From IMG/VR virus record IMGVR_UViG_2690316184_000003: 5,505 nt of DNA. The stretch is one strand, 5' to 3'. Numbering within the stretch: the stretch's first letter is position 1; each line of letters opens with the position of its first letter. The notes beneath the pieces are model-generated. The model saw nothing but the letters and a program-made list of their open reading frames with translations. It had not been told where the DNA came from and did no database searches. Source of the DNA: a virus (Duplodnaviria > Heunggongvirae > Uroviricota > Caudoviricetes). Shown here in pieces: positions 1,961 through 5,505 of this stretch. The position numbers and the translations under genes were made by a program.

Positions 1961-3022
1961 ATGAAAAACACTGTAAAAATAAACAGTATTGATTTAATCA
2001 ACGCTGATTGCCTGCATTTTATTCAGTCCCTGCCTGATGATTCCATTGACCTGATTGTTACCGATCCGCCTTACTTCAAGGTGAAACCCAACGGTTGGGA
2101 CAATCAGTGGAAAGGGGACGAAGATTACCTTAAGTGGCTGGACCACTGTCTGGCCCAGTTCTGGCGGGTGTTGAAACCTGCCGGAAGCCTTTACCTGTTC
2201 TGTGGGCATCGCCTGGCATCTGATATTGAGATCATGATGCGTGAACGTTTCAACGTGCTTAACCATATCATCTGGGCGAAGCCGTCCGGACGTTGGAATG
2301 GGTGTAATAAAGAAAGTCTACGCGCATATTTTCCTGCCACAGAGCGCGTTCTGTTTGCTGAACATTACCGGGGGCCATATCGCGGCAAAAGTGACGGCTA
2401 TGTGGCAAAAGAAAGGGAACTCAAACAGCACATAATGGCACCGCTGATATCGTATTTCAGGGATGCTCGTGCCGAACTGGGTATAACGGCAAAACAAATT
2501 GCCGAAGCCACAGGTAAGAAAAATATGGTTTCCCACTGGTTTGGTGCCAGTCAGTGGCAGTTGCCGAATGAGGCTGACTACCGGAAGTTACAGGCACTGT
2601 TTTCCCGTATAGCGGCAGAGAAGTTTCAGGAACAACAACTGGAACAACCACACCACCAGTTGGTGGCATCTTATGATTCACTGAATCGCAAATATTCTGA
2701 ATTGCTGGATGAGTTTAAATCTCTCCGGCGCTATTTCTCCGTATCAGTCTCCGTGCCTTATACCGATGTCTGGATGCATAAACCCGTTCAGTTCTACCCG
2801 GGTAAACATCCGTGTGAGAAACCGGCGGATATGCTCAGGCAAATAATCAATGCCAGTAGTCGACCCGGCGATCTGGTTGCTGATTTCTTTATGGGATCCG
2901 GTTCCACAATAAAAGCAGCAATGGCGCTGGGGCGTCGGGCGTTAGGTGTTGAGCTTGAGACAGAGCGGTTTAATCAGACCATCCAGGAAATCAGTATGTT
3001 ATCAGCAAATACAATTTTGTGA
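1961..3022 (+). CDS. DNA methyltransferase, beta-class amino-MTase (N6-adenine or N4-cytosine), apparently orphan
   Basis: 353-aa ORF. Catalytic motif IV DPPY (IVTDPPYF) lies near the N-terminus and the AdoMet motif I FxGxG (DFFMGSGST) near the C-terminus, the circular permutation typical of beta-class MTases (PF01555-like). The middle region has an HTH-like segment (GITAKQIAEATGKK). No restriction endonuclease partner is recognisable in the window. Confidence 0.9.
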   Translation: MKNTVKINSIDLINADCLHFIQSLPDDSIDLIVTDPPYFKVKPNGWDNQWKGDEDYLKWLDHCLAQFWRVLKPAGSLYLFCGHRLASDIEIMMRERFNVLNHIIWAKPSGRWNGCNKESLRAYFPATERVLFAEHYRGPYRGKSDGYVAKERELKQHIMAPLISYFRDARAELGITAKQIAEATGKKNMVSHWFGASQWQLPNEADYRKLQALFSRIAAEKFQEQQLEQPHHQLVASYDSLNRKYSELLDEFKSLRRYFSVSVSVPYTDVWMHKPVQFYPGKHPCEKPADMLRQIINASSRPGDLVADFFMGSGSTIKAAMALGRRALGVELETERFNQTIQEISMLSANTIL

Positions 3023-3264
3023 ATTAATTCAATTATTGGTGGGATGTCTGTGCCGTATAATGATTACAGATACAGTGTATCCTGCAATGCAGCAGGGCTG
3101 ATGTGGTGGGTTGTACATAGCCTGCAAAGGATTGGCTTCATTAATTCATCGTTGATACAAGCGAGTCACGGTTGACCACGCCAACGGCTCATCGGTAAAA
3201 ATCCGACACCGTGTCTTCTTAACTCACTTATTGTTTCCACCCATGTTTTTGGATACCTGCTGTA

Positions 3265-3303
3265 GCTGTCAGATTAGCGCGATAATCTGACAGCTTTTTT
3301 TTT
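3265..3303 (+). terminator. Strong rho-independent terminator
   Basis: Perfect 11-bp stem GCTGTCAGATT (3265-3275) / AATCTGACAGC (3284-3294), 8-nt loop, followed by nine T (3295-3303). Confidence 0.85.
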
Positions 3304-3591
3304 ACAACGAATCCTTCTGATCTGCTTTTGCGGGGCTTTTTTGTATCCGCTCCATGCCCGGCGTATAAGCGGAGGTTGGTCAGTTTTCTAAAAATTGAAA
3401 TACCTCACAATTCAGCCAGTTAATGGTTGTTTGTCTGGCGAAGAGTTTGTAAATAAAAAAACGCATGGTGAATCCCCCTAAGCGGCGGGGCGAATCAGCA
3501 GTCAGTTCTGGGATAATCGCGGGTTCGTATGCTGATGCCGGACTCACCGGGAGGCACCCGGCACCATGCATCATGGTCATCCCCTTGTATG

Positions 3592-3618
3592 ATACCCCTC
3601 TCCGGAGGGGTATTTTTT
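3592..3618 (+). terminator. Rho-independent terminator ending the structured element at 3463-3590
   Basis: Stem ATACCCCTC (3592-3600) / GAGGGGTAT (3605-3613), loop tccg, then TTTTT (to 3618). Confidence 0.7.
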
Positions 3619-3622
3619 GGAT

Positions 3623-3650
3623 AAAAAAGCCCGCGCTGGGAGGCACGGGC
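3623..3650 (-). terminator. Minus-strand intrinsic terminator, convergent with the 3592-3618 terminator
   Basis: On the minus strand: GCCCGUG / CGCGGGC stem (7 bp with one G-U pair), 8-nt loop, followed by UUUUUU (plus-strand A-run 3623-3628). Confidence 0.5.
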
Positions 3651-3885
3651 GGCAAGGAATAAAACGTGAAGAAATTTTCACAGGCGCATAATAATCCGAT
3701 GTTGCCAGATTTTGCAACTGCATCATCTGGTTATTATGTGAGCTGGAAAATCAGATTCTGTATGGACTGAAGCCATGCTGTTATTTAGGGCCAAAGAGCT
3801 GGCTTTTTCCCGCCTTCTCTCCAGTAACGATTAATGAGAAAAGAATGAAATGCTTTTCCTGGGGAGGAGGGCAGTAGAAAAAAGA

Positions 3886-3943
3886 ACCCGCCAGCAAAAA
3901 TATGGGGGATGAACAGCTTTTGCTACTCAGGTTGCTGGCGGGT
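3886..3943. repeat. Perfect 12-bp inverted repeat separated by 34 nt
   Basis: AACCCGCCAGCAA (3886-3897) pairs exactly with TTGCTGGCGGGT (3932-3943). On the minus strand the hairpin is followed by a T-rich tract (plus-strand agaaaaaag, 3876-3884). Confidence 0.6.
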
Positions 3944-4051
3944 ATGGTTCTTCATGAAATAAGAATGTTACGCGGTATTTTTAATGAAAATGATAATTAT
4001 TGTCAATTGGTTGTGCGTATTTTTTCATACATGACTGGTAAAGGTGATTCA

Positions 4052-4083
4052 GGCCATCAGAGTTTTGCTGATGGCCTTTTTTC
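4052..4083 (+). terminator. Rho-independent terminator immediately upstream of the holin gene
   Basis: Perfect 9-bp stem GGCCATCAG (4052-4060) / CTGATGGCC (4068-4076), 7-nt loop, followed by TTTTTTcttt (4077-4086). Confidence 0.8.
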
Positions 4084-4115
4084 TTTCCGGTAGCACAGGT
4101 CTGTTGGGGCGGGAT

Positions 4116-4331
4116 ATGTATCAGATGGAAAAAATATCAACAGGCATTGCCTACGGCACCTCCGCAGGCAGTGCTGGCTACTGGTTTTTACAATGGCTTG
4201 ATCAGGTTAGTCCGTCTCAGTGGGCTGCGATTGGTGTACTGGGAAGTCTGGTTCTGGGCTTTCTGACTTATCTGACGAATCTGTACTTCAAAATCAGAGA
4301 AGACAGAAGAAAGGCTGCGAGAGGAGAGTAA
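4116..4331 (+). CDS. S: Class II holin (phage 21 S-like pinholin) with dual start (Met1 antiholin / Met4 holin)
   Basis: The translation [71 protein letters not shown] (71 aa) closely matches the S21 holin as I recall it. Two in-frame ATGs at 4116 and 4125 give the 71/68 dual-start arrangement. Two hydrophobic segments and a charged C-terminus. The track ORF from 4044 is a GTG extension that runs through the upstream terminator hairpin and is unlikely to be real. Confidence 0.85.
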
Positions 4332-5023: not shown

Positions 5024-5505
5024 ATGAACGCAAAAATCAGATACAGCCTGTCGGCTACTGTACTAGTGCTGATTGGTGCAGGCGCGTCTGCTCCTCAAAT
5101 ACTTGACCAGTTTCTGGACGAAAAAGAAGGTAACCACACAACGGCATACCGTGATGGTTCCGGCATCTGGACCATCTGTCGGGGTGCCACGATGGTGGAT
5201 GGAAAACCCGTTTTTCCCGGTATGAAACTGTCGAAGGAAAAATGCGACCAGGTTAACGCCATCGAACGTGATAAGGCGCTGGCATGGGTGGAACGTAATA
5301 TTAAAGTACCACTGACCGAACCACAAAAAGCGGGTATCGCGTCATTTTGCCCCTATAACATTGGCCCCGGTAAGTGTTTCCCGTCGACGTTTTATAAGCG
5401 GCTTAATGCCGGTGATCGTAAAGGTGCCTGTGAGTCGATTCGCTGGTGCACATCAAAGCAGTCTGTCAGTCAGTGCGTGAAGCCACCACCGCCTCCGGCG
5501 TGGAT
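5024..5505 (+). CDS. R: Endolysin, GH24 (T4/P22-type) lysozyme with N-terminal hydrophobic SAR/signal-like segment; 3' partial (runs off the window)
   Basis: Translated by hand: MNAKIRYSLSATVLVLIGAGASAPQILDQFLDEKEGNHTTAYRDGSGIWTICRGATMVDGKPV...VPLTEPQKAGIASFCPYNIGPGKCF.... It shows the E...D...T catalytic pattern and overall similarity to P22 gp19-type lysozymes as I recall them. The hydrophobic N-terminus fits a SAR endolysin paired with a pinholin. No stop before 5505, which is why it is missing from the ORF track. Confidence 0.85.
   Translation, partial: MNAKIRYSLSATVLVLIGAGASAPQILDQFLDEKEGNHTTAYRDGSGIWTICRGATMVDGKPVFPGMKLSKEKCDQVNAIERDKALAWVERNIKVPLTEPQKAGIASFCPYNIGPGKCFPSTFYKRLNAGDRKGACESIRWCTSKQSVSQCVKPPPPPAW

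Follow-up and report, generated by a model that had tools for sequence, protein, structure and literature searches.

A copy of the small RNA gene STnc100 in the late region of an Escherichia coli lambdoid prophage, with a comparative model of its folded core

What is encoded in the unannotated DNA that separates a DNA methylase gene from the lysis genes of a lambdoid prophage of Escherichia coli? The question is raised by a stretch of 5,505 nucleotides (nt) from the IMG/VR virus record IMGVR_UViG_2690316184_000003 (Caudoviricetes), the whole of which is referred to here as the window, and in which a first-pass annotation, made from the sequence alone, had described a structured non-coding element at 3463-3618 with nested stems and a terminator at its end. 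The element is a copy of STnc100, a catalogued small RNA (sRNA) gene of lambda-like prophages; the family is already known and the element represents no new kind. Comparative analysis of its homologues gives a testable structural model, comprising a pseudoknot, a short helix termed P3a, and a split of the RNA into a core and a 3' module.

STnc100 ranks among the most abundantly annotated bacterial sRNAs, with no function given (PMC9029176). One copy lies directly downstream of stx2, and sequence variants reported to predict haemolytic uraemic syndrome fall in this copy downstream of stx2B. Genome annotation leaves the STnc100 locus blank or calls spurious open reading frames (ORFs) there. A structural model is offered that groups working on the relatives EcOnc27, sRNA103 and PasD could use for the design of mutants and for asking whether the core binds a partner. 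All features described below lie on the + strand unless stated otherwise.

Identity and genomic setting of the element

A scan of the whole window against Rfam gave one strong match, to RF02076 (STnc100), at 3434-3622 (114.5 bits against a gathering score of 47; E = 2.3e-25), which spans the covariance model over its full length, positions 1-206 of 206. The first ~29 nt of this match are probably promoter rather than RNA. The consensus helices of the family, namely the closing stem, the CCCCC/GGGG hairpin, the stem that precedes the CCGGG hairpin, and the CCGGG-AGGCA-CCCGG hairpin, are all present in the window and are supported by covariation across 68 homologues. An intrinsic terminator follows at the 3' end (hairpin at 3591-3614 plus a U-run), and the element lies, as do other members of the family, in a lambdoid late region, where it is close to Q and precedes the lysis genes. 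The first-pass description of a structured non-coding RNA that ends in a terminator holds. RefSeq has nothing annotated at 3434-3622, no Rfam riboswitch model matches the window, and a search with ARAGORN finds no tRNA or tmRNA gene, nor does Rfam return a tRNA or tmRNA match at E <= 1, in keeping with the earlier statement that the element does not fold as a tRNA.

Several E. coli chromosomes carry the window sequence with 100% identity. The gene order, as given by RefSeq and Pfam, begins with a Q antiterminator gene (to 750, PF03589), two hypothetical genes, and a DNA methylase gene at 1961-3022; a gap without annotation at 3023-3901 holds the element, and a 63-codon ORF, a class II holin gene (4116-4331, PF04971), YdfR, and a truncated lysozyme gene follow. 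The window is the late region of a probably cryptic E. coli lambdoid prophage, with STnc100 between the Q and cargo genes on one side and the lysis genes on the other. Crypticity is deduced from the lysozyme gene, which is annotated as truncated (a pseudogene) and is followed by the serum-survival gene iss (5024-5446 in the window, 11024-11446 in L001): the prophage is therefore probably cryptic, though its small RNA gene is intact.

Fold of the conserved core

Homologues were sampled by exact-pattern scans with either the terminal hairpin of the core (P5, below) or a 5' motif, ATGGTGAATCCCCC, across viral contigs and the genomes of Escherichia, Shigella, Enterobacter and Leclercia. These scans gave ~200 loci, with 170 distinct instances in 90 clusters; many of the loci are related prophages, for which the slid and permuted controls used below correct in part and the shuffles do not. 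From the distinct homologue cores, 68 were aligned with MAFFT with no structural input (alignment A1).

Folded by itself, the segment 3461-3620 reaches a minimum free energy (MFE) of -66.2 kcal/mol (z = -2.07), a value matched by 5 of 200 shuffles. This is modestly better than chance, and one sequence proves little. The outer stem, the terminator and the CCGGG hairpin all survive in the MFE fold, in which the inner stem of the first-pass annotation (ATCAGCA with TGCTGAT) gives way to the pairing GGGTTCG/CGGACTC (3521-3527/3539-3545). When the whole structure is placed on A1, 81.9% of cells are paired, compared with 38-46% when the partners are slid, and the covariation score of 0.350 compares with at most 0.153 for the slid registers and is reached by none of 500 shuffles. 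From the same alignment, RNAalifold returns P1, P4 and P5, and also P2 with one base bulged, and 15 of 24 pairs show compensatory changes. Covariation among homologues, which the first-pass annotation had named as a check, is strong for P1 and P4, and the pseudoknot covaries too.

The conserved core (3463-3569, 107 nt) is accordingly modelled as a five-helix junction composed of P1, P2, P3a, P4 and P5, closed by P1 and locked by a pseudoknot. P1, which pairs GCATGGTG (3463-3470) with CACCATGC (3562-3569), is the perfect outer pairing already recognized in the first reading; it shows double compensatory changes in six of its eight pairs, has 93.8% of cells paired, and varies among homologues as GCATGGTG/CACCATGC, TTGTGGTG/CACCACAA, ATGCAGTG/CACTGCAT and CTGCTGTG/CACAGCAG. 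The P2 hairpin (3474-3489), as drawn by RNAalifold on A1, consists of CCCCC (3474-3478), the loop UAAGC (3479-3483) and GG-C-GGG (3484-3489), in which C3486 is bulged or mismatched (A1 column pairs 17-32, 18-31, 19-30, 20-28 and 21-27); CG pairs are replaced by GC in 10-16 sequences of A1. P3a joins GCGA (3490-3493) to TCGC (3517-3520) and encloses one strand of the pseudoknot plus a variable P3 region at 3501-3516. Its alignment columns 33-34 and 91-92 are paired in 90.4% of cells, and the helix covaries from C-G to U-A (GC...GC to GU...AC) in the GGGGT...ATCAC variants. P4 is the helix of GGGTTCG (3521-3527) and CGGACTC (3539-3545), followed by the unpaired A3546; double changes are seen in seven of its eight alignment pairs, the paired share of cells is 81.3%, and it varies across lineages as GGGTTCAG/CTGAACTC, GGCTCTGTG/CGCAGAGTC and GATACCAG/CTGGTATC.

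The P5 hairpin, CCGGG-AGGCA-CCCGG (3547-3561), which the first-pass annotation had also placed correctly, abuts the 3' strand of P1 with no linker and is nearly invariant. Its invariance within A1 follows by construction, as the sequences were collected partly by P5 itself; among 129 copies retrieved by the 5' motif alone, that is, independently of P5, the hairpin is exact in 119 (92%). Among the unpaired positions, those of the P2 loop (UNNGC), the P5 loop (AGGCA) and the AAU that follows P1 are nearly invariant. A literature search for the P5 sequence string found no paper.

Three nested helices had been proposed at the outset, and all three exist; the inner one, however, is not nested. Its two strands, ATCAGCA (3494-3500, here X) and TGCTGAT (3530-3536, X'), are perfectly complementary as first noted, but X' lies inside the loop of P4 (3528-3538), and because X pairs with the loop of this conserved helix, the comparative evidence identifies the inner stem as a conserved pseudoknot between the strand that follows P2 and the P4 loop. 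The mean duplex energy of X with its own P4 loop is -9.04 kcal/mol, compared with -5.38 (standard deviation 0.26) for permuted partners, and none of 5000 permutations was as good. The pairing is maintained in nearly every lineage by at least 20 different sequence pairs, examples of which are CCAGTC/GACTGG, CTAGAC/GTCTAG, CAGTTAA/TTAACTG, AATGAC/GTCATT, ACTGGATA/TATCCAGT and GACTGACAAA/TTTGTCAGTC. On the MAFFT alignment, the pseudoknot columns are 57.3% paired with a covariation of 0.394 at register 0, and 54.2% paired with a covariation of 0.341 at register +1; all other slides give 23-37% paired and a covariation of at most 0.15. The structure line of the STnc100 covariance model, as output by cmscan, shows no pseudoknot, and the word is absent from a 2026 preprint on these RNAs by Zhu, Shabalina and Storz; neither the pseudoknot nor P3a was found described in the STnc100 literature accessible to search.

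A topological variant occurs in three loci (L003 4933-5041, L014 3245-3353 and L196 8035-8143), in which the strand following P2, GTGATACC, has as its partner GGTATCAC, immediately 5' of a short P4, rather than the P4 loop, such that the helix is nested and not pseudoknotted.

The fold bears directly on two other accounts of the locus. The first is that the element is a decayed tRNA or tmRNA fragment, for instance the remnant of an att site, a thought prompted by GGGTTCG, which the first-pass annotation had called T-loop-like, and by CGCGGGTTCA in relatives, both of which look like the 5' half of a T-arm and which we take to resemble the 3' end of E. coli tmRNA. The string is indeed present, but it forms the 5' strand of P4, where other lineages carry the unrelated covarying sequences GGCTCTGTG, GGCCATG or GATACCAG; selection keeps a different fold. 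Together with the negative ARAGORN and Rfam scans, this covarying strand effectively refutes the notion of a remnant, and no sign of a decayed known gene was encountered.

The second account is that one of the open frames at 3465-3662 (+ strand) and 3380-3655 (- strand), of 65 and 91 codons, encodes a small protein, as would be in line with those phage records that annotate a "hypothetical protein" here. Neither frame has a Pfam match or a RefSeq coding sequence. P1 contains the ATG at 3465 and covaries to sequences that have none; the start codon is lost in many homologues and the frame is not conserved. Core lengths range from 107 to 142 nt, with differences that are not multiples of three and no three-base periodicity. 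The substitution pattern is that of an RNA, with G-U pairs on the + strand only, and it is this asymmetry that places the selected structure in the + strand RNA. Coding capacity can be set aside with near certainty, and the ORFs are artefacts, as had been suspected.

Transcription unit and probable function

We consider it probable, and hold with fair confidence, that the element is the gene of an independently transcribed STnc100-family sRNA of ~157 nt, associated with Hfq, acting in trans, and built from a folded core and a 3' module. A promoter-like sequence read by hand, TTGTTT (3427-3432), a 17-nt spacer and TAAATA (3450-3455), precedes the core, with TTGTCT-N17-TAAAAA as an alternative reading in the window. 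Most lineages carry TTGAC(A/C)-N17/18-TAAATT or TTGTCT-N18-TAAAAG upstream of P1, ending 3-8 nt before it. Among 75 cluster representatives, a sigma-70 pattern in this position reaches at least 8/12 matches to consensus in 64% (16% of shuffles) and at least 9/12 in 24% (3% of shuffles). Transcription would then start at ~3461-3463, at the first base pair of P1. At the other end, the intrinsic terminator identified by scan and by folding (3591-3620) has a 10-bp stem, GATACCCCTC/GAGGGGTATT, with the loop TCCG (hairpin 3591-3614) and a T-run to 3618, much as first described, and the predicted RNA would end at ~3618-3620. A strict intrinsic terminator ends 30-71 nt after P1 in 54 of the 90 family clusters. 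Between core and terminator lies AUCAUGGUCAUCCCCUUGUAU (3570-3590), a linker that is single-stranded in the MFE fold and is a candidate seed or Hfq-contact region.

The sequence 3' of P1, linker and terminator together, differs in blocks between lineages, so the RNA is modular, with a conserved core and a variable 3' part; the module in the window is a lineage-specific variant ~70-80% identical to copies in sequenced phages. CATGGT repeats in the linker, considered as a sign of a switch, occur only in lineages whose P1 holds the palindrome CATG. When the linker was paired with translation starts in the window, none of seven tests was significant after correction; the two best were ORF 905 (-17.3 kcal/mol, reached by 2.3% of shuffles) and ORF 3902, where TCATCCCC would pair with GGGGATGA (-17.4 kcal/mol, reached by 3% of shuffles).

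This block-wise exchange is also one of the facts that speak against a riboswitch-like leader, in which the core would be an aptamer that decides whether the terminator at 3591-3620 forms, and hence whether polymerase reads through into the lysis genes. In its order of parts, namely a promoter, a pseudoknotted junction closed by P1, a terminator and then ORFs, the locus is like a transcriptional riboswitch. The 3' strand of P1, however, shows no preference for its own downstream 60 nt (-6.91 kcal/mol against -7.09 for permuted partners, with 2811 of 3000 permutations at least as low), the holin start is ~500 nt away behind another terminator (4051-4077), and the Rfam riboswitch models are silent. 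We regard such a switch as very unlikely. A related candidate, the 3' strand of P2 (GGAGGGG) as an antiterminator that pairs with the terminator, was rejected: the pairing is possible only in lineages with the CCCCTCTCCGGAGGGG terminator, and the others use unrelated terminators.

A similarly low standing is given to a processive antitermination RNA of the put or EAR type, which would render polymerase resistant to terminators. The window element is a structured RNA close to its predicted promoter and followed by terminators, and HK022 put is likewise a structured nascent RNA of a lambdoid phage with terminators behind it. The put RNA comprises ~70 nt in two stem-loops that form a V, has neither a closing stem nor a pseudoknot, and operates in early operons (PMC9378689), whereas the window holds a closed five-helix junction of 107 nt in a late region; put and the element have no sequence or structural match, and a put-type RNA was rejected on this architecture. 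Moreover, relatives of the element accumulate in the form of separate, terminated sRNAs, lysogens would be killed by constitutive antitermination into the holin gene, and Q proteins are encoded upstream. All told, this idea is highly improbable.

Short, terminated RNAs of lambdoid late regions are also exemplified by lambda 6S RNA and by StxS of Stx phages, pR'-tR' transcripts whose terminators are read through by Q-modified polymerase. These transcripts begin at pR' directly after Q and bear the loading and pause signals for Q. The window RNA differs from them in its position, ~2.7 kb downstream of Q and behind cargo genes, and in having a predicted promoter of its own.

What can be said of function comes by analogy from relatives. 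In enterohaemorrhagic E. coli EDL933, eleven STnc100 copies (STnc100_1-11) are transcribed, and STnc100_4 is positive on Northern blots (PMC5331693). EcOnc27, which is identical with sRNA103, is bound by Hfq and overlaps the STnc100 copy downstream of stx2B, and its overexpression raises espA and fimZ mRNA (PMC12711010, PMC5030294). STnc100 has also been found in outer membrane vesicles (PMC12370729), and a chromatin immunoprecipitation-exonuclease (ChIP-exo) signal of RpoD is present at Salmonella STnc100 copies (PMC10794520). The EcOnc27/sRNA103 copy shares with the window RNA P1, P2, P4, P5, the terminator, and the location in a lambdoid late region between the Q or cargo genes and the lysis genes; the cargo upstream is stx there and a DNA methylase here. 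PasD1 and PasD2 of enteropathogenic E. coli are Northern-validated, stabilised by Hfq, provided with partners by RIL-seq, in which interacting RNAs are ligated and sequenced, and located next to Q (PMC8550237). They have been described as structural homologues of STnc100, although BLAST does not link the two and their seed regions differ (Zhu, Shabalina and Storz, bioRxiv 10.64898/2026.05.13.724894). With the window RNA, they have in common a prophage origin, an intrinsic terminator and the proximity to Q; stabilisation by Hfq is a property of PasD.

On these grounds, the window RNA would be transcribed from its own weak sigma-70 promoter, from ~3461-3463 to the terminator at 3591-3620, and, in association with Hfq, would regulate mRNAs of the host and the prophage in trans. 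The 3' module (linker, terminator and U-tail) would supply the Hfq contact and probably the pairing region, and the folded core a stable structural or recognition domain. In cis, the terminator, along with two others at 3264-3295 and 3321-3334, would stop transcription from the cargo genes and from the RNA's own promoter before the lysis genes in the lysogen, and Q-modified polymerase would read through them.

Several observations weigh against this assignment. The window promoter is weak, with 8/12 matches to consensus, and is unlisted by an automated promoter scan; the experiments on STnc100 come from relatives and not from this variant; and sRNA103 is not complementary to espA, on which it therefore apparently acts indirectly (PMC12711010, PMC5030294). 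For a seed-type Hfq sRNA it is unusual to have invariant loops and a covarying pseudoknot in a five-way junction, and this suggests a structure-dependent function beyond base pairing; so compact a core exceeds the needs of an Hfq-pairing mechanism and points to a structural role or a partner. The near-invariance of P5 in A1 is owed in part to how the sequences were collected, notwithstanding its conservation under P5-independent sampling. Finally, some subfamilies carry the same core with no terminator, running into ORFs, and the core is therefore independent of the sRNA format.

The compact fold and the terminator-less subfamilies could also be taken to mean that the folded core is itself the functional unit and serves to recognise a conserved factor of host or phage, be it a protein, RNA polymerase, an RNase or a small ligand, with Hfq-dependent pairing secondary. 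In its broadest form, this proposal, which we advance tentatively and think less than even in likelihood, holds that an autonomous module binds a conserved factor and is deployed as a terminated sRNA, in tandem arrays of 2-6 copies, and as terminator-less leaders before small ORFs beyond the reach of the Rfam model. The compact junction with linkers of near-zero length, the maintenance of the pseudoknot through at least 20 sequence classes, the near-invariant unpaired nucleotides, the occurrence of the same core in arrays and terminator-less contexts, and the indirect action of sRNA103 all favour it; the co-purification of relatives with Hfq and their RIL-seq chimeras do not. The layout is possibly tRNA-like, with P1 as the acceptor, P2 in the position of the D-arm, and P5 stacked on P1 like a T-arm. 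Such an arrangement would share with tRNA, the tRNA-like domain of tmRNA and bacterial Y RNAs a closing stem on whose 3' strand a 5-bp hairpin is directly stacked and, beyond a 3-nt linker, a hairpin where the D-arm would be, but the window core has five helices instead of four, a P5 loop of 5 nt with no T-loop pattern, and no CCA end, and neither ARAGORN nor Rfam gives a tRNA-like signal. A loop-loop contact between L2 and L5 (GC with GC) was considered and set aside, as L5 varies too little to bear on it. Were the proposal true, STnc100 and PasD would constitute a new class of structured phage RNA, whose virulence effects and link to haemolytic uraemic syndrome would run via the partner of the core.

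The terminators raise a further alternative, that the element acts mainly in cis within the late operon, either by silencing the lysis genes of lysogens as a terminator or insulator, or by serving the processing or stability of the Q-antiterminated transcript, or both, with the sRNA a by-product. Its conserved position just upstream of holin or esterase-holin genes is consistent with such a role, and the segment 3000-4200 contains nine terminator-like sites against 1.1 expected, four of which are strong + strand hairpins before the holin gene. A terminator alone, however, needs neither a covarying, pseudoknotted core of 107 nt nor a promoter of its own; 36 of the 90 clusters have no strict terminator, and a few copies lie outside late regions, beside Kil or repressor-type genes. 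We judge a mainly cis-acting element to be rather unlikely, and the trans-acting sRNA with a core and a 3' module remains the favoured assignment.

Distribution of the family and neighbouring features

By blastn, relatives of this copy are present in 2786 of 5426 complete E. coli genomes, in up to 11 places per genome, and the window's own variant (at least 99% identity) occurs in 122 of the matched records. In 73 loci for which the first downstream ORF was classified, it encodes a holin in 22, a DUF1737 protein in 11, an SASA esterase in nine (these two counts overlap, being partly the same esterase proteins), and a DUF6645 protein in eight, with a few lysozyme, terminase, Kil and GnsAB genes elsewhere. 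Upstream ORFs encode three unrelated Q families (7), methylases (3), Stx B, TerB, and some repressor-like proteins. In K-12 MG1655, neither the Qin nor the DLP12 late region (L202, L203) contains an STnc100 copy; the gap between Q and the holin gene is occupied there by nmpC/IS5 or by csp genes whose leaders are thermoregulators of the cspA type, and the large K-12 RNA data sets consequently cannot inform on the family.

Tandem STnc100 arrays are found in viral contigs at spacings of ~220, ~253 or ~484 nt (L144 342-1038; L174 4349-5513 and 8357-8555; L008 6775-7212; L194; L156); one array contig has three copies followed by a tRNA gene, and another has six copies plus an isrI match. Eleven subfamily loci (L131, L133, L135, L138, L143 at 10173-10296, L148, L163, L171, L172, L182 and L189) keep P1, the pseudoknot, P4 and the invariant P5 and have a different P2 (GCGGC...GCGCACGC). 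L131, L133, L138, L148, L171 and the + strand copy in L143 gave no STnc100 match in an Rfam scan at gathering thresholds. In several of these different-P2 subfamilies a terminator is missing and the sequence runs on into more hairpins or into small ORFs, one of which is for a 36-residue hydrophobic protein (MSRNGIRSLVIVL...).

Within the window, the two terminator-like hairpins at 3264-3295 and 3321-3334 lie ~240 nt after the methylase stop; the first has a 13-bp stem with T9 and the second is shorter. Between the methylase gene and these hairpins, 3023-3263 is free of annotated genes and might accommodate a further small RNA. Downstream of STnc100, the annotated 63-codon hypothetical ORF (3902-4093) ends within a strong terminator hairpin at 4051-4077 (AGGCCATCAG...CTGATGGCCT, then a run of T), which the holin start follows at a distance of 40 nt. 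The only other Rfam match in the window, to SgrS at 3986-4082, is below threshold (24.8 bits against 37) and consists mostly of that hairpin plus a short upstream similarity. The region 3902-4093 may be an sRNA or a leader rather than a gene.

A small convergent transcription unit is predicted on the minus strand at 3620-3717, with a promoter-like TTGCAA-N18-TATTAT (3717-3688) and a terminator back to back with that of STnc100. Its putative RNA, of ~64 nt, has a hairpin at its 5' end, then an unpaired U-rich stretch of 14 nt (GUUUUAUUCCUUGCC), and last the terminator GCCCGUGC-CUCCCA-GCGCGGGC-U6; the RNA has no Rfam match, and its MFE is -21.1 kcal/mol (z = -4.82), with none of 200 shuffles as good. 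Part of P5, GGGAGGCAC (3549-3557), recurs 88 nt downstream at 3637-3645, inside the minus-strand terminator, and the convergent RNA would thus carry GUGCCUCCC, complementary to the loop and stem of P5. The repeat was considered and dropped as a feature of the family, as it was seen only in this lineage (the window and L079), and may reflect chance or local sRNA-sRNA pairing. The convergent unit is itself confined to the ~123 genomes that carry this prophage variant, among which it is nearly invariant.

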